Shown here: in pieces, positions 1 to 21,298 of the stretch
Numbering within the stretch: the stretch's first letter is position 1
How the letters are laid out: each line of letters opens with the position of its first letter
Assembly (NCBI RefSeq): GCF_006345805.1
Contig: NW_021834076.1
Span: 1 to 27,121 of the forward strand
Direction: 5' to 3'
From: Octopus sinensis
Taxonomy: Eukaryota
DNA length: 27,121 nucleotides
Notes under the pieces: generated by a model
Told to the model about the DNA's origin: nothing
The model's database searches: none
Seen by the model: only the letters and a program-made list of their open reading frames with translations
Program-made: the position numbers and the translations under genes

Positions 1-414
1 CACACACCACACATCACTACATCACATCGCTCCACCCTGCACACACTAGCATTGACCACCTACTCATGAACACACCCACACATCAAGGTCACCAGCCCCA
101 ATCCACATGCTTACACTTACACGCTCTCACAAACACACGCACGTGAACCTTCGTTTTTGGATCACCCCTACTTTATTATCTCCCCTTCTTCCTAGCTCTC
201 CTGCCTGACCATCTCCGTCCAGCAATCGCTATGATCGACCGCTAGCCACTAGAGCTTTGTTTTTTAAATTCTCTTTCTGTTTATTTTCTCTTGTTACTTT
301 CTATTGAAGAGCGTAGGCTCGAAACGTAAAAGATTTTCTCACCATCCCGATCGTTAAACTAATACAACTGTTTGTTGGTAATACCCCTATTTTTCGCCTT
401 TTGTCTTTTTGTGA

Positions 415-2825: not shown

Positions 2826-3006
2826 GGGTTAAAATTTTGACACAAGGGCAGCCATTTGGCGGGAAGGGATGTGTCGATTACATCGACCCCAGTGACTGGT
2901 TCTTATTTTATCGACCCTGAAATTATGAAAGGCAAAGTTGACCTTGGGGGAATTTGAACTCAGAACGTAGCGACTAGCAAAATACCGCTAAGCATTTAAT
3001 CCGGCG
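2826..3006 (-). mobile_element. tRNA-derived SINE family A, diverged and 5'-truncated, with the alternative tail
   Basis: Reverse complement matches the body of 12878-13110 (TTCTGAGTTCAAATTCC...GTCAACTTTGCCTTTCAT...GGGTCGAT). The tail (CCCTTGTGTC) resembles 13230-13275. Confidence 0.8.
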
Positions 3007-3515: not shown

Positions 3516-4322
3516 GGTTCTTTTCCTTTTGAGCGGCAGATGTCAACACAATTTCTAGTTAACTAAACACTTTTAAACTTCGTATACTGGTAGAATGTGT
3601 TTATAAAACATCATTTTCGCTTGCTTTTATTGAGAAAATTCTATAGTTTGTAAGATATTTCGTCTGAAAATCCGAACATTTCGGCAATTTTAACCAATCG
3701 ATTACCTCCTTTTAAGCAAGCAACATTTGCTGCGTCTAAAACTGAGACAACATCCTGTAACTAACCCTCAGCCTCCCCCTAACCCTAACCATAATTTTTT
3801 TTCTTAATTGTTAAATTAATTTAATTGTTACGCGTGTAAAAAAACTAAAGCAATGGAAAATATTTTAAACAATTAACATACAAAATAATTCTATAATTTT
3901 ATACACACGCTTTCCGTACGTATACGGAAAGCGTGTATTACGGAAAGCGCGTGTATAAAATTATAGAATTATTTTGTATGTTAATTGTTTAAATAATTTT
4001 CCATTTAATTGTTACACGCGTAACAATTAAATTAATTTAACAATTAAGAAAAAAAATTTAGGGTTAGGGTTAGGGTTAGGGGGGTTAGGGTTAGTTACAG
4101 GATGTTGTCTCAGTTTTAGACGCAGTAAATGATTTTAGCTCAAAAGAGAGCATAGGATAGGTTAAAATTCGAAAAATTAAACTACGTTAAACAAACAAAT
4201 TACAATTTTCTCAAGAAAGCCAAGAGAAAAAACTGTTTTATTTTGACACATTCTACCAGTATACGAAGTTTTAAAGTGTTTAGTTAACTAGAAATTGTCT
4301 GCCGTTCAAAAGGAAAATATCC
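3516..4322. mobile_element. Foldback/MITE DNA element: about 800-bp imperfect palindrome with internal (CCCTAA)n/(TTAGGG)n
   Basis: Termini GGTTCTTTTCCTTTTGAGCGGCAG and CTGCCGTTCAAAAGGAAAATATCC; arms are reverse complementary to a centre at about 3905-3945; flanks CTATTCCTC / CTATCCTC form a degenerate TSD. Confidence 0.9.
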
Positions 4323-7199: not shown

Positions 7200-9132
7200 A
7201 ACTATTCAACCATTATATTTAAGTTGAATAGTTGTTCTGGCGATCTCATGTGAAGAACCGAGGAGAGGTAAAAGAAAAAAACAGCACAGATTTTCGTGCC
7301 TCCTAAAAATTTGTGAGAATTGCCGTTTTGGGGGAGTGTCTTTGCCTCCGAAGATTGAACGACTTGTACAACAGTTTATGTGGAAGTTGGGTTCCAGTTG
7401 TGGAGATCCGGGTTCGACCTTGGCCGGGAGTACCTAATGGACGGAAGATTTTTCTTTTGCTGTTTTTGAACAATTGATTTTCTTGCTTCTAAACTTTTTT
7501 GACTTTCTTTTTTCGTGAATTGTTTTCTTTTTTCTTCCTTCCATTGTATTGGGACTTCCCTTTGATTTCTTTCTTTTTCTTCTTCTTTCTATTAAAGTTT
7601 TATTTTGATCTATCTTCGAACTTTTATTACAAAAAAAACATGGCAATGAAAACCGACAATGTTTTAGAGTGGGAAATGGTACCACCCAAATAGTGGTTGA
7701 AAGACCTTGAGGAGAGGACGGTGGTGTTGAGGACTTACTCCAAGTCGCTCGACACCATAGCCCTATTTGAAAAGATTGTAACTGAAAAGAAGTTGGTAGA
7801 GGAGAAAAAAATACTCAACAGTGAGGCTGCTATTTGACACTCCTCAAGAGGCTCGCAAATTTGTGAGCCAGCCCTTAGACGGCAAAGAAATTTTGTTTCT
7901 TCGCACCCATTGTGGAAAGAGGTTGACAAGAGCTTGGCTTTGCGGGTTGCCACCCGTAATGTAGCCCGAGTGGATAGAGCAGACTATCCCCCGGGGTCTG
8001 GGTGGCAGCGGAGCTAAGCTCCTAAATGTGAAAAATTTTCCTGCGGCTGATTGGGTTAGCTGTTTTGACCCTGTGGACCCAATCAGCCAATCTGGTTTTT
8101 CCAGAAAATGGCCGGGTGCAGGTACCCGGTGATTCTTCTGGGTCGCCTCACCAGGTGTCATCGGTGCCTGGAGCCTGGCCATATAAAGGAAAACTGCTCC
8201 CAGGAACAACGTAAGGTCCTGGAGCAGTTGGCCCTGGAACGAAGGCGGCCGAGGAGGCGGAGTACTCCTCAAAGAAGAGCTGCAAGAGTAAGAAGGTGAA
8301 CAACAATAGGTGCTCACCGAAGGAACCTAGGGATGAGGGAGGGGAGGCGAATCTCCTGGTTACGGAGGAGATTCACCACCACCCTCAGATGAGAAGAACT
8401 AAAAGAGGAACATTGCCGGCAGTCGTTGGCATAGTACCGGAATGTCCCGGAACCTCTTCGGTAGGGGCTGTGCCACCGGTAGGAGAAAAGACACCGTCGG
8501 TGGGATTTGTGCCGCCGACGGTAGAAGTGACTACTTCGTCCCCGGAGGAAGACGAATTATTGGTCTTCTTCTTCTTCTTCTTCTTCATAGGTGGAGAGGT
8601 GGAGGTATTGGAAAAGCAACTTAACGGAGTACCTTTAGCCTTCACACGGGATCCTGAATGGCCTCCACAGATAGCTGTGGAGGTCACAACGTTACTCGTG
8701 TTGCGTACGCTGCAGGTAACCAATGAGGAATATCGCTTGTGGCTGGGCGACGCCGACACGGCACTCACTTTGTGCTTGTATGAGGCGTGGGTGATGGCGG
8801 AGGATTGGGTCACAAGCGATGTTGGGGAGGAATATGGATAAGAGGTTGAAAAGCCTCAGTGTTATTGAAAGTTCCTAGTTGGGAAAAAATGGTAACAGGC
8901 TTAGTTCCTCATTTTGTTATTGAATATCGTGAACAATGTAAGAGGTGTGTTGCCCCATGAATAATATAAGACTTCAATGTTATCGAGAAATAAAACGATC
9001 GGCGGGCTTCGCTTTTTCACCCCATTAATCATCATTTTCGTTTTTCATTTCATATAACATTATGTCTGTGTCCAGCCCTCAGCTTCCTTTCTCTATATAA
9101 GGCATTTGTGGCCAATATAATGAAATAAAGAA
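7200..9132 (+). mobile_element. Non-autonomous ORF1-only non-LTR element (HAL1-like architecture), decayed
   Basis: Higher-GC block with a leader, a disrupted reading frame from about 7640 to 8841 containing a CX2CX4HX4C knuckle, then about 290 bp of UTR ending AATAAAGAA. The tail resembles the LINE tail at 10059-10099. No EN or RT motifs seen. The 5' border is approximate. Confidence 0.6.
7640..8841 (+). pseudogene. Disrupted gag/ORF1-like nucleic-acid-binding protein with a zinc knuckle
   Basis: CHRCLEPGHIKENC at 8156-8197, preceded by YPVILLGR and followed by a basic then P/S/T-rich region; in-frame stops and frameshifts. Confidence 0.65.
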
Positions 9133-10725: not shown

Positions 10726-11754
10726 TCACGCGCTGAGACTGCGCATCATCAACCACGACATGCCTAGTCCTCCTTTTAACAGGTGTTGACAGTAAATGTA
10801 TCGCCTACCCATCGGGGCGCATCCTTTCCACAAGAAGCGAAAGACAATGCGCTCTAGTTTGGTGATGGTAGGGTCGGGACAAGGCACGACGGTCAGGTGG
10901 TAGTAGATGACGGACGCGATGTACTTGTACGCCACCTCCACCCGACATTTTAGGGACAGTTTCCCTTCGGCCCATTGCCGAATGAGAGTGACCTCCCTAC
11001 TCGTTATCTTGTTCCAGTTCTCCATTTGGATGTCCGGACCAAACCAGACCCCGAGCAACTCGACCGGACCGTCGGTCCAGCGTCCCACGACGGAGGCGCT
11101 GGTGGACGGCATGGGCTTGCTTCTCCAGGTGCCGAGCCGCAAGCCCAGTAACTTTTCCCGGTTGATTTTCGCTTCTGTCACTGCTTCGTACTTTTTCAGT
11201 GTCTCGCCGACCTGCTCGATGTGCTGGTGGCTAGACACTATGACGGTGACGTCGTCCGCATATGCAAACACGCTCGTCCCGCACCCCAATTCTCGCGGGA
11301 TGCCCCTCAAAGTTGCCAGCTTCCGCAATAATGGCTCGAGAGTCAATACGTAGATAAGCGACGAGAGGAGGCATCCCTGAAGGACCGAAAGTGCAATGTC
11401 GAAAGGTCTTGATAGATATCCATTTACGCGAATTACCGAAGGGATACCTCTGTACAAAGCGGCTATCCAGCCGCGGAAGACGGGACCGAAACCAGTCGCT
11501 CTGAGGACAGCCTCCAAGTATCGATGGTCTACCCTATCGAAAGCTTTCGATTGATCCAAATTGGTCAGGGCCCCACCCATGCCAGGTTCCTTAACTACCC
11601 TGTCTATGATGTAGCGCATCAGATGGAGGTTCTCATGGATGCTCCGGCCCGGCACGGCAAACATTTGCGCCTTGTCGACCAGTTTGTCGATGACAAGCGC
11701 CAACCTCTCAGCTAACACCTTGACCAAATGTTTCAAGTCTGCATTAAGTAGAGT
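10726..11754 (-). pseudogene. Non-LTR reverse transcriptase domain (ORF2 fragment)
   Basis: Part of the 422-aa ORF. The first roughly 80 aa of that ORF are microsatellite and flank read-through; no endonuclease domain is present. Confidence 0.9.
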
Positions 11755-11870
11755 ACAGACAGACAGGTAGATTGAGAGACAGACAGACTGAAAAGCAGGC
11801 AGATAGATAGATAGATAGATACATACATACATACATACATACATACATACATACATACATACATACATAC
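11755..11870. repeat. (GACA)/(GATA)/(CATA)n microsatellite
   Basis: Direct reading of the sequence. Confidence 0.9.
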
Positions 11871-12877
11871 GGTTATTGATCATTACATATATTATGAATA
11901 CGTTGTTAGTATACATTTCACACACGCAGAAAACTCCAGGCATACGCGAACGCATACTAGAACAAGGACCGCACAAACTGGCTGAAGGATGCATTTACAT
12001 GTTCGGGTAATAATATTCAAGTCTTAAGAAAAAGGGGAAAAGTGAGCTTTAAGAGCGTAATGAAGCAGAGATGATGGTCGTGACGCGTTGTTTCAAAGAT
12101 TTTTTTTCAAAGTTTCGATAATGAAACTTAATCTAAAATAATATATTTAATATAATTTTAAAAAGATAAGTCGCGTTAACAGTGAGAATGACTACAACAA
12201 AGCGCGTGAACTTACAAATATATCTAGTTTAATCGTACAGAACTGATAGATGAATGGCTTAAAACCTGTAGAAATCCGGAAGGATACGAATAGAAATGAA
12301 AAAGTCTTTATCAACGAGAACAAAATGTTGAAGTAAATGGTTTTTATCGAGTTTTAGCATTGAAAAAGTGTCAAACAGAAAATGGATAACGTAATAAATT
12401 ATCAAAAATTTTGAAAATGGTATGTGATTTTATTGTGATTCAATATATTCCATTTTGCTGATGCTGTTCAAAAAGTTCAGATTACATAACACATGAGGCA
12501 GTGAAAGATTAGAAATATAAAAAATAAAGATGAGAGAAAAAATAGGAAACGAACGAAAAAGAAAAACCACCTAAGTGAAATCTGCAAAACGGTTTTTTTC
12601 TTTTCTGTGTTCGAAACAATATATTTTTCAAAACAAAGCAGAAGCAAAATGCTAGCTTCCTTTCCGCTCAATTATTACCATAAGAGCTGTGTTCGGATGG
12701 GTTCGCGTATTCTGGAATAGTCTATTATGTTTGAAAAGGAGTTCAAGACGATTCTTTCGAAAGGAAACATATTCGAATATTCTAATGAAAATTTTTTGGT
12801 AGACAGATAAAAGTCTTCTCATACGTGAAAAGTTATGTCTTAAATATATTTTCCGTTACATTAATGCACGCCTTCTA

Positions 12878-13277
12878 GGGCGGCGAGCTGGCAGGGTCGT
12901 TAGCACGCCGGGCGAAATGTTTAGCGGTATTTCGTCTGCCGCTACGTTCTGAGTTCAAATTCCGCCAAGGTCGACTTTGCCTTTCATCCTTTCGGGGTCG
13001 ATTAAATAAATACCAGTTACACACTGGGGTCGATATAATCAACTTAATCCGTCTGTCTCTCCTTGTTTGTCCTCTCTGTGTTTAGCCCCTTATGGATAGT
13101 AAAGAAATAGGTATTTCGTCTGTCTTCACATTCTGAGTTCAAATTCTGCCGAGGTTGACTTTGCCTTTCGTCCTTTCTGGGTCGATGAAATAAGCACCAT
13201 TTACGCACTGGGGTCGATATAATGGAGTAGTCCCCTTACCCAAAAATTTTCAAGGCCTTGTGCCTAGAGTAGAAATA
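12878..13277 (+). mobile_element. Dimeric SINE family A: full monomer (12878-13110) plus a headless monomer with a different tail
   Basis: A-box-like GAGCTGGCAGGG and B-box GAGTTCAAATTCC; body repeated from 13110; degenerate TSD ATTAATGCACGCCTTCTA / ATTAATACACTTTTTCTA. Confidence 0.88.
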
Positions 13278-16948: not shown

Positions 16949-17185
16949 TATTTCTTTACTGTCCACAAGGGGCTAAACATAGAGGAGATAAACAAGGACA
17001 GACAAAGGGATCAAGTCGATTACATCGACCCCAGTGCGTAACTGGCACTTATTTAATCGACCGCGAAAAGATGAAAGGCAAAGTCGACCTCGGCGGAATT
17101 TGAACTCAGAACGTAACGGCAGACGAAATACGGTTACGCATTTCGCCCGGCGTGCTAACGTTTCTGCCAGCTCACCGCCTTTACT
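16949..17185 (-). mobile_element. Full-length SINE family A with an 18-bp TSD
   Basis: Reverse complement of 12878-13110; TSD ATACATATATGTAGTATA at 16931-16948 and 17186-17203. Confidence 0.93.
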
Positions 17186-17354
17186 ATACATATATGTAGT
17201 ATAGTCAACATCTCATGTGACTCAAAATTATCATGATAGCAAGTAAGGTACCAGAAAGTTTAGAATGTGTAATACTTGCAATATTTATGCTTTCAGTCGT
17301 CTTACGTTCTGAACACAAATGTTACCCAGTTTCTACCTTGATTCCATATACCCA

Positions 17355-17589
17355 TTTCTTTACCACCCACAAGGGGCTAAACACAGAGAGGACAAACAAG
17401 GACAGACAAACGGATTAAGTCGATTACATGGACCCCAGTGCGTAACTGGTACGTAATTAATCGACCCCGAAAGGATGAAAGGGAAAGTCGATCTCGGCGG
17501 AATTTGAACTCAGAACGTAGCTGCAGAGACGAAATACTGCTAAGCATTTCGCCCGGCGTGCTAACGATTCTGCCAGCTCGCCGCCCTTA
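17355..17589 (-). mobile_element. Full-length SINE family A with a 14-bp TSD
   Basis: Same family; TSD ATTCCATATACCCA at 17341-17354 and 17590-17603. Confidence 0.93.
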
Positions 17590-18660: not shown

Positions 18661-18703
<43 letters not shown>

Positions 18704-18741
18704 ATATATATGTATATATATAGAAAGAGAGAGAGAGAGAG
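18661..18741. repeat. (TA)n(GA)n microsatellite
   Basis: Direct reading of the sequence. Confidence 0.95.
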
Positions 18742-18744
18742 ACG

Positions 18745-18930
18745 CCATGTTAGATCGTTAGCCACTACACACATTTTTTCTCTCCTTGTTTTTTTCTGTG
18801 TCCCTTTCTGTAGAAGAGCGTAGGCTCGAAGCGTAAAATACTTTTTCTATTCCTGAGCGTTATACTAATACATATGTTTGTTTTGTACACCACCTGTCTT
18901 CGTTTTTTGTTTTCTTCGTAAACTCTCCCT
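18745..18930 (+). mobile_element. Short PLE-terminal-repeat-like element (same family as 1-420) with a decayed hammerhead-like motif at 18804-18839
   Basis: CTTT-CTGTAGA-A-GAGC(GTAG)GCTC-GAAG-CG-TA-AAAT; collinear with 240-420; ends in (TA)n. Confidence 0.65.
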
Positions 18931-18950
18931 ATATATATATATATATATAT

Positions 18951-19510
18951 AGTTATCAGTAATAATATAGGGTGAAATTAATTAATTTGGAATAATCATT
19001 AATTTTACCAAGTAGATTTCGGCATGTAAAAGCCTCATTCGAGGAAAGTTTAAGTAATACTAAGTAATTAAGGGTTTAGCAACGATTTGCCTCACCACAC
19101 ACCGAATTTAGAAATAGCAGTCAAAGAGTTATAGCTATTCTTTCTACTAAAAGGGAGATCTCAGTAAAACCGCAGCACTTGAAAGGCAAACACAAACAGG
19201 CAAGAGAGAAGGAAATGACTGCAATCTATCATACAATTTTAAGTCACCTACGGACGTACGTTTCGAAATTAAGTTTTAGGAAAGCATAAGAATTAGATAA
19301 TTATGACTTACCCAACTTCTTTTCTCATCAGCGTAGGACACAACAATTATGAATAATTGTATATTAAAGTTCGTGTGCATATGTCTGTTTGTGTGGGTTT
19401 GTGTATAGGTGTGAATTTGTGTGTGTTTGTGCCTGTGTGTTTTTGCGTGTCGGAGAGCTTAATATGTGATAATAGGTCTGTTTGATTCTCTGAATCCCTA
19501 TGTTTCATAT
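18951..19510 (-). mobile_element. Hammerhead-bearing non-coding element between (TA)n tracts (PLE terminal repeat or retrozyme-like)
   Basis: Contains a canonical hammerhead at 19247-19337; bounded by (TA)n on both sides; no ORF. Confidence 0.7.
19247..19337 (-). ncRNA. Type I hammerhead ribozyme with an intact core and extended stem II
   Basis: Minus strand reads CCTACG-CTGATGA-GAAA[about 52 nt]TTTC-GAAA-CGTACG-TC-CGTAGG: perfect 6-bp stem I, canonical core, palindromic ACGTACGT stem III, GUC cleavage triplet. Confidence 0.88.
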
Positions 19511-19521
19511 AATATATATAT

Positions 19522-19554
<33 letters not shown>

Positions 19555-19835
19555 TATGATTAATAAATATTAGGGAATAAATCCAAATTTACAGGGAAAA
19601 ATCAGATTTAGGATTGAATCCAATTTTATAGTAAAATATTAAGATAATATTAATTAGAGACAAAACCACTATTATGCAAATCAAACAAAGAAAGACTTAA
19701 TCCAATACATAAAAAAATTTATATAAATTAAATATAATTAAGATTAATTAAAATATCCACTACGATCGTTTCTTGTCATTTCAATGGACATTCATCTAAT
19801 TAATTAATGAATTAATTGTCTCTAATTAATATTAT
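19555..19835 (-). mobile_element. Third hammerhead-motif element between (TA)n tracts, 5'-truncated with an inverted segment
   Basis: Minus strand 19796-19756: GATGA-A-TGTC(CATTGAAAT)GACA-A-GAAA-CGATCG-TA-GTGGA. Perfect 20-bp inverted repeat at 19644-19663 / 19816-19835. Confidence 0.6.
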
Positions 19836-19847
19836 ATATATATATAT

Positions 19848-19848
<1 letters not shown>

Positions 19849-19933
<85 letters not shown>
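19849..19933. repeat. (GATA)n microsatellite
   Basis: Direct reading of the sequence. Confidence 0.95.
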
Positions 19934-19934
<1 letters not shown>

Positions 19935-19935
<1 letters not shown>

Positions 19936-20434: not shown

Positions 20435-21298
20435 TAGGAAACATAGGGGTTCAAAGAATCAAACACATCTCATATTAAGCTCTCCGACATATCTATAGGG
20501 AGAGAGAGAAAGAAAGAGTGAGAAGTGAGAGAATATAAACATTTTTACAATACAGAACAAGAACACTCAATCTAAATTAGCTTCTTAGAGCGTAAGGTTG
20601 AATACGAATATCTTAAATTAGATGGATGCCAAAACTGTGATTCCTGATCTATTTTCCTCGGTTCCCATAAGCCTGTTGTACCATTAATATGCAATATATT
20701 CCCCTGTCGTTCACGAATTAGCATTGAGGAGAGTACATGAAGTTATCCAGCTCAGAGTAGGACTGAAAACGTCTGCAATATATCATATGAAATGCTTCAA
20801 ACTCAAAATATGGAGGAGTGAATTCAAAATTGTCGCTTTAATTATAGACAGGACATTCATACATAGCATATAAGTTTTTTTGTCTGTGTATGTCTAAGTT
20901 TACGTGCATCGTAGTCTTCTGTGTTAGGCTTTATCGCAGATTCTGAATTCAGATTATATAAGAAACTTATTAAAACTGCTAGAATGTTTAACAAGTCACC
21001 TGAGAATGCGTAATTTGTACCCCTGATGCAAGACAATTGATTGAACAGCATCTCACCTGTGAGATACAGATGCAGAATTCGAAACAATTATAGTTCATTC
21101 GAATAAAGAATCTCGTGAATTCCATTTCTGTCTCTCAGCTATTTATATAAACTACACGGAAACCAAGGAATTCTTGAAGTAAATCTAGCAACATATGCTG
21201 CACTGATGATGTTTACATCAGGAAGCCAATACTTGTGAACGCACTTTATATAACGTTCTATAATTATAATTTTAATTATATTACGTATGTGTGTGTAT

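Follow-up and report, generated by a model that had tools for sequence, protein, structure and literature searches.

The stretch of DNA analysed here, hereafter the window, comprised all 27,121 nt of contig NW_021834076.1 of Octopus sinensis. By inspection of its sequence, three unlike segments, designated E1, E2 and E3, were recognized in orientations +, - and -, flanked by TA tracts (Table 1). As originally predicted, these segments were unrelated, and the first two met tail-to-tail across the (TA)11 tract. The same prediction placed all three in one array, separated only by (TA)n, and this had to be revised: E2 ended at 19373, not at 19510, and was followed by unrelated DNA up to 19506. Owing to this 133-nt piece, two TA tracts were involved rather than a single array.

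Table 1. Features of the E1-E2-E3 locus (window coordinates)
Feature	Position	Strand
(TA)n tract, then (GA)n; 5' flank of E1	18661..18742	
E1: 5'-truncated 3' end (pLTR) of a putative Neptune-type PLE	18743..18929	+
E1 minimal type I hammerhead	18804..18839	+
(TA)11 separating E1 and E2 at their 3' ends	18930..18951	
E2: part (about positions 163-582) of a non-coding tandem unit of 582 nt, up to its long ('tail') 3' end; probably retrozyme-like	18952..19373	-
E2 intact type I hammerhead	19247..19337	-
Non-E2 DNA: GT-rich simple sequence and ~60 nt with a single inverted 81% match	19374..19506	
Second (TA)n tract; 3' flank of E3	19507..19554	
E3: 3' end (pLTR with tail) of a putative Hydra-type PLE, truncated inside the hammerhead core	19555..19796	-
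E3 hammerhead remnant	19757..19796	-
19-nt AT-rich filler, then 20-nt inverted copy (19816-19835) of the E3 short 3' end (19644-19663), a 5' inversion of PLE type	19797..19835	+
(TA)n, then (ATAG)n; 5' flank of E3	19836..19935	

The sole non-simple match of positions 19374-19506 in the genome search was an inverted copy, 81% identical, at 20438-20489. A fourth repeat family was rejected as an identity for this piece, which gave two matches, both in the window, in a search that skips very common words. Positions 19444-19508 and 20438-20489 formed a local inverted duplication of ~55 nt (81% identity), to which the genome search returned no further match.

A strict hammerhead descriptor matched once in the 27-kb window, on the minus strand inside E2. 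A hammerhead had been predicted in each of the three copies; that of E2 was indeed intact, but that of E1 was mutated (G at position 15.1) and that of E3 truncated. An Rfam scan of the window (E up to 1) returned 49 matches, none to a hammerhead family and most to miRNA models lying on simple repeats; for minimal motifs of this kind a descriptor is needed. The top Rfam score, from the MIR7993 model and under the gathering score, fell on a ~130-nt long hairpin at 3863-3992.

No PLE reading frame was found in the window by tblastn. The RT at 10726-11994 (-), a 422-aa frame with an RVT_1 match (E 9e-24), belonged to a LINE-type, non-PLE element, and further broken frames were present at 7434-8855. 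A second, diverged (79%) 3' end of the E1 family was present at 269-376 (+), followed by (TA)n at 419-499. Dispersed repeat copies, 84-91% alike and in inverted orientation, occurred at 12879-13237 versus 16949-17527, and at 2892-3006; we take them to be a likely SINE.

Family searches in the 2.72-Gb genome, with 40 candidates scored per search, gave 1912 first-look candidates for E1, 2577 for E2 and 609 for E3. Hammerhead patterns of the three families matched 11,623, 784 and 4,403 times, respectively, and their reversed controls never. The 3' end was followed by (TA)n at 23 of 30 E1 loci (background 8.3%), at 30 of 34 E2 ends (3.9%) and at all 30 E3 loci, which represented 23 insertions (11.9%); these flank counts covered all 30 loci each for E1 and E3, and E2 after removal of six overlapping pattern loci. 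The background consisted of 0.6 Mb of evenly spaced DNA, which contained 313 TA arrays (522 per Mb) and eight hammerheads from about seven families (~13 intact per Mb; none in three shuffles). Members of all three families displayed the PLE insertion signature of a (TA)n target, 5' truncation, an inverted piece and an optional tail, and two alternative 3' ends were observed in E2 and E3 but not in E1. None of the families was single-copy or had flanks without (TA)n enrichment, and the motifs were present in the consensi. The original prediction that several hammerhead-bearing, (TA)n-targeting families of PLE or retrozyme type occupy one niche was supported. At least nine more hammerhead families with differing stems and palindromes were encountered (loci L300, L314, L330, L350, L356, L357, L033, L237 and L164).

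The E1 hammerhead was composed of stem I CTTT/AAAG, a CTGTAGA core with U at position 6 (U6), an extra A, stem II GAGC/GCTC and the palindrome ACGT. The family motif reads CTTT, CTGTNGA, A, GAGC-GTAG-GCTC, GAAA, CG, TH, AAAG. The window copy carried G for A at position 15.1 (18831), a hammerhead position which we take to be invariant, together with a stem I mismatch (18839), and its palindrome read GCGT. Position 15.1 of E1 was A almost throughout in contigs of all four runs compared, the G being private to the window copy. Best-hit copies of E1 were mostly short 5'-truncated ends. The original prediction had proposed a search for RT and GIY-YIG frames 5' of the elements, and such linked frames were found for E1 (L033, L178) and for E3 (L093 and the Hydra frame of L204); at E2, no linked frame was found in the loci searched. 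At L033, a GIY-YIG EN frame and RT motifs lay upstream of an E1 end. With this EN as query, 150 matches were scored of 16,146 candidates and 30 loci were fetched, 28 of which (query locus included) displayed an E1-like tail of 76-95% identity 0.3-1.2 kb downstream of the EN. The open frame of L178 contained RT, DKG, YIDD, the linker CSRPRCRTC (CxCxxxxCxxC; CX2-5CxxC type), CVSCSLC and EN, and matched RVT_1 above the Pfam cut-off.

An RT with a C-terminal GIY-YIG EN was linked to the E1 terminal sequence, as in Neptune elements. According to the available part of PMC8557442, Neptune PLEs display an RT with DKG, a CX2-5CxxC linker, a C-terminal GIY-YIG EN with two internal cysteines, a hammerhead in the pLTR and microsatellite targets, all of which were shared by E1. 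These motifs fit an assignment of E1 as the 3' end of a Neptune-type PLE. The CX2-5CxxC-type linker is given there as common to the Neptune and Nematis clades and, because both have it, E1 could also belong to Nematis. The clade calls of E1 and E3 are based on such motifs.

The E3 family motif (CCAC, CTGATGA, stem II, GAAA, CGATCG, TA, GTGG) was complete, and only the window copy was truncated. The latter retained GATGA, stem II, GAAA, the palindrome ACGATCGT, TA and GTGG; the 5' strand of stem I and C3-U4 were missing. It started at G5, after the filler and the inverted copy of the short 3' end, and similar inversions began at the same place in many E3 copies. At L093, an EN frame was located 3.2 kb upstream of an E3-type end. 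A search with this EN gave 16,972 candidates, of which 30 loci were fetched; an E3-type end (83-86% identity) lay within 1.5 kb downstream at three of them (L116, L117 and L132). The sequence upstream of E3 at L084 matched sequence downstream of the EN at several other loci. An 859-aa frame of L204 displayed RIKWK, DKT, YRDD and CxCX5C and, compared with the Hydra clade as described in the available part of PMC8557442, shared RWK, DKT, CxCX5C, the absence of CCHH and a C-terminal CxxC. Pfam gave no match for this frame or for the EN piece. By these motifs, E3 is assigned as the 3' end of a Hydra-type PLE. The same source reports insertion into (TA)n for Hydra elements and a canonical hammerhead, both encountered here, and a general size below 3 kb; in some copies of this genome, by contrast, EN and hammerhead were separated by several kb of low-complexity sequence, and Hydra-type copies numbered thousands. 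Among 100 listed matches of the wider Hydra-type motif (4,403 in all), a hand count of palindrome centres gave GATT 55, AATT 30, ATTT nine and GATC six. A tandem array of several kb, made of CA-rich units of ~0.7-1 kb, was observed beside Hydra-type ends at L092 (2000-5900), and similar sequence lay between EN and hammerhead at L093.

E2 carried a hammerhead with stem I CCTACG/CGTAGG, CTGATGA, a long stem II, GAAA and the palindrome ACGTACGT; cleavage is predicted after the C at 19253. The CUGANGA and GAAA boxes, UH and stems I-III of type I hammerheads were all present in the window copy. The unit was non-coding, with a period near 582 nt and a folding z of -5.55. A clan of related tandem hammerhead units of ~566-590 nt (L285/L286, L108, L054, L296 and L283), all differing in stem I and palindrome, was also observed, with 520 matches to one common 27-nt motif. 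Relatives L108, L285/L286 and L054 aligned with the E2 unit; their hammerheads were kept, with stem I changed but still paired and with changed palindromes. Stems I and III covaried across the clan, and its palindromes (ACGTACGT, ACACGTGT and ACGCGT) were kept through compensatory change.

The structure of E2 insertions was derived from 40 scored of 2577 candidates and from the first 30 fetched of 784 pattern matches. Among 24 position-ordered insertions, ten displayed a head-to-tail junction, where the unit's own 3' end preceded unit position 1, and ten an inverted piece; free 3' ends occupied two positions, with 22 short ends and 12 long ones. These two ends match the 'tail' pattern of PLE ends, which the available text of PMC11167929 explains by two sites of internal RT initiation. 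E2 copies also share inversions and target with PLEs, and E2 might accordingly be regarded as belonging to an autonomous PLE, as its long pLTR, with coding copies that escaped the limited sampling of candidates and pattern matches. We consider this unlikely: what precedes unit position 1 in the ten junctions is the unit itself, the period is ~582 nt and L108 and L285/L286 (~566 nt) repeat the same type of closed unit. Moreover, when two PLE proteins were compared by tblastn with 59 E2 and 30 sister-family loci, five matches resulted, none of which could be placed as an upstream frame of the unit. A partner for E2 was also sought through the common 3' motif; this route led to a sister non-coding family without a linked frame.

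E2 is more likely to be a non-LTR retrozyme-like element mobilised by PLE enzymes. Like the metazoan non-LTR retrozymes described in the available parts of PMC7229834 and bioRxiv 10.64898/2026.07.22.740005, it is a non-coding, strongly self-paired tandem repeat in which every unit contains one type I hammerhead, and it co-exists with PLEs. It differs from them in its insertions, which are short and dispersed, contain no more than ~3 units and display the inversions, tails and (TA)n targets of PLEs. At 582 nt, it also exceeds the ~170-400 nt given for invertebrate retrozymes (PMC7229834, in part). No paper on cephalopod retrozymes was found by title or abstract in the literature searched. The PLE-type ends of E2 lend support to a proposed role of animal retrozymes as non-autonomous passengers of PLEs.

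Taken together, the locus very probably consists of two PLE 3' ends, one Neptune-type and one Hydra-type, plus part of a 582-nt non-coding hammerhead repeat likely mobilised by PLEs, the three having landed independently. They would have come to lie side by side because each inserts into (TA)n. Following published work on PLEs, the GIY-YIG endonuclease would nick (TA)n, reverse transcription would start at one of two internal sites, producing short or tailed ends, and it would usually stop early, so that only the hammerhead-bearing end is left. An insertion that leaves TA on both sides would preserve the target, which may then be hit again. In the source elements, hammerheads would cleave as dimers in tandem transcripts; as only the E2 motif is complete here, the cluster itself is likely inert. 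In one purified PLE system, hammerhead cleavage was protein-assisted and dispensable for insertion (PMC11167929, in part).

Neighbours from another of the three families were found at ten of 158 other loci, against 2.7 expected, nine of them within 170 nt. Within 600 nt, another family was present at 3/77 loci of the position-ordered sample (1.33 expected, P 0.15) and at 7/81 loci of the best-hit sample (1.4 expected, P 0.0006), with expected densities resting on 11 background matches. These counts exclude the window's own loci as well as overlapping pattern loci (six of E2, seven of E3) and overlapping best-hit loci (five of E2, one of E3). Pairs were modestly enriched, significantly so in the best-hit sample only, and no further E1/E2/E3 triple was seen in the 158 loci. 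A triple seems uncommon, yet would be expected somewhere among tens of thousands of copies. The excess of close neighbours might suggest a selected or functional arrangement, for instance a hot spot, or several ribozymes processing one read-through transcript. This is extremely improbable, as two of the three motifs are broken here, the strands differ, the 133-nt piece intervenes and the common target already accounts for close neighbours. It is also very unlikely that the junctions were created in assembly by joining repeats across TA tracts: although the window is a small unplaced contig in its entirety and no contig among the runs compared spans the E1-E2 junction, each copy displayed family-typical ends and private changes, and similar family pairs occurred on large contigs (L153, L162, L253 and L087). 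Independent insertion thus presents the stack as the outcome of common (TA)n targeting in a genome with ~520 TA arrays and ~13 intact hammerheads per Mb.

The stem III palindromes originally attributed to the three elements (ACGT, ACGTACGT and ACGATCGT) proved to be those of their families, the E1 copy of the window departing from its own. It had further been proposed that different palindromes confine dimeric cleavage to the same family. The palindrome would then act as a family barcode, alone restricting cleavage to kin, as might be suggested by its conservation through compensatory change in the E2 clan and in Hydra-type motifs and by the weaker E2xE3 stem III duplex (-3.0 kcal/mol) compared with the respective homodimers (-9.8 and -10.0 kcal/mol). 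Energies were computed for bare 4-8-mers, however, and on the same basis E1 paired with E2 as well as with itself (-2.4 and -1.7 kcal/mol, respectively). In addition, among 256 descriptor matches in 357 loci, six palindromes were combined with two or more different stems I each: ACGTACGT was present in both E2 and L350, families with different stems I and II, ACGATCGT occurred with stems CCAC and TTAG, and ACGT with several stems. Conversely, Hydra subfamilies with different palindromes had a common stem I and some cross-paired (-7.9 and -6.1 kcal/mol, also for bare 4-8-mers). Palindromes as sole barcodes are therefore rather doubtful. Palindromy appears clearly maintained, as published, without being private to families. 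Stem I cross-paired over 0-1 bases between E1, E2 and E3 and over 4-6 within a family; palindromes recur in unrelated families and stem I is the more reliable difference, so that both stems are likely required for any confinement. At the locus itself no dimer is expected, given a single full motif and the opposite strands of E1 and E2.

Much of the above is in print, namely PLE hammerheads, their palindromic loop 3, dimer cleavage, (TA)n targeting and the niche, and the cluster as such falls within ordinary PLE biology. The hammerheads found here share with the PLE minimal hammerheads of PMC4209133 (available part) an extra nucleotide between 9 and 10.1, a short stem I and palindromic 15.2-16.2 and loop 3, and would follow the same dimer model. 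The one point that might be unexpected to specialists is the U6 core of E1. With positions 6, 7 and 17 left free, the E1 pattern gave 11,623 matches, and the E1 clade accordingly counts at least that many copies. All 100 E1-clade motifs among the matches listed (of 11,623) displayed U6; in the same 100, position 7 was occupied by all four letters and position 17 by A or U, never G. Only these two positions varied, the remaining core bases, both stems and the palindrome being kept. The E1 family thus lacks the invariant A6 of the canonical type I CUGANGA and displays all other features. A pattern demanding A6 matched 3,888 times; two of the 100 listed had the loop of E1 and the rest represented a related family, which has the same ACGT palindrome and TTT/AAA of stem I. 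In this sister family (L358-L387), (TA)5 was observed within 130 nt at 21 of 30 loci, and many copies had a weak 3' strand of stem I (AAAT).

U6 thus distinguishes the E1 clade from Neptune PLEs, the related family of the same genome having kept A6. No description of a U6 core was found in the literature searched, although Lunse 2017 on PLE hammerhead variants or the supplements of PMC4209133 and PMC8557442 may hold one; the part of PMC4209133 available here names a U3-A8 core variant and none with U6. A natural change at position 6 is known from the A6C hammerhead of phage Bcep176, which displays low activity in Mg2+ and is rescued by Mn2+ (PMC3088659 and PMC7151607, available parts). That case concerns C rather than U and a single phage ribozyme, whereas U6 appears fixed in a clade of more than ten thousand retrotransposon copies.

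A bolder reading of these sequences, held only tentatively and with little expectation that it is correct, is that the U6 motif may be an active non-canonical ribozyme, dependent on protein or metal, or else a catalytically dead half that serves the A6 sister family as a substrate for cleavage in trans, with E2 belonging to a clan of ~580-nt retrozymes that integrate by the PLE mechanism. If true, trans cutting of the U6 motif by the sister family would mean that retrotransposon families share a ribozyme. The pair formed by the A6 sister clade and a successful clade whose core change is fixed offers a natural test of whether selection keeps catalysis.
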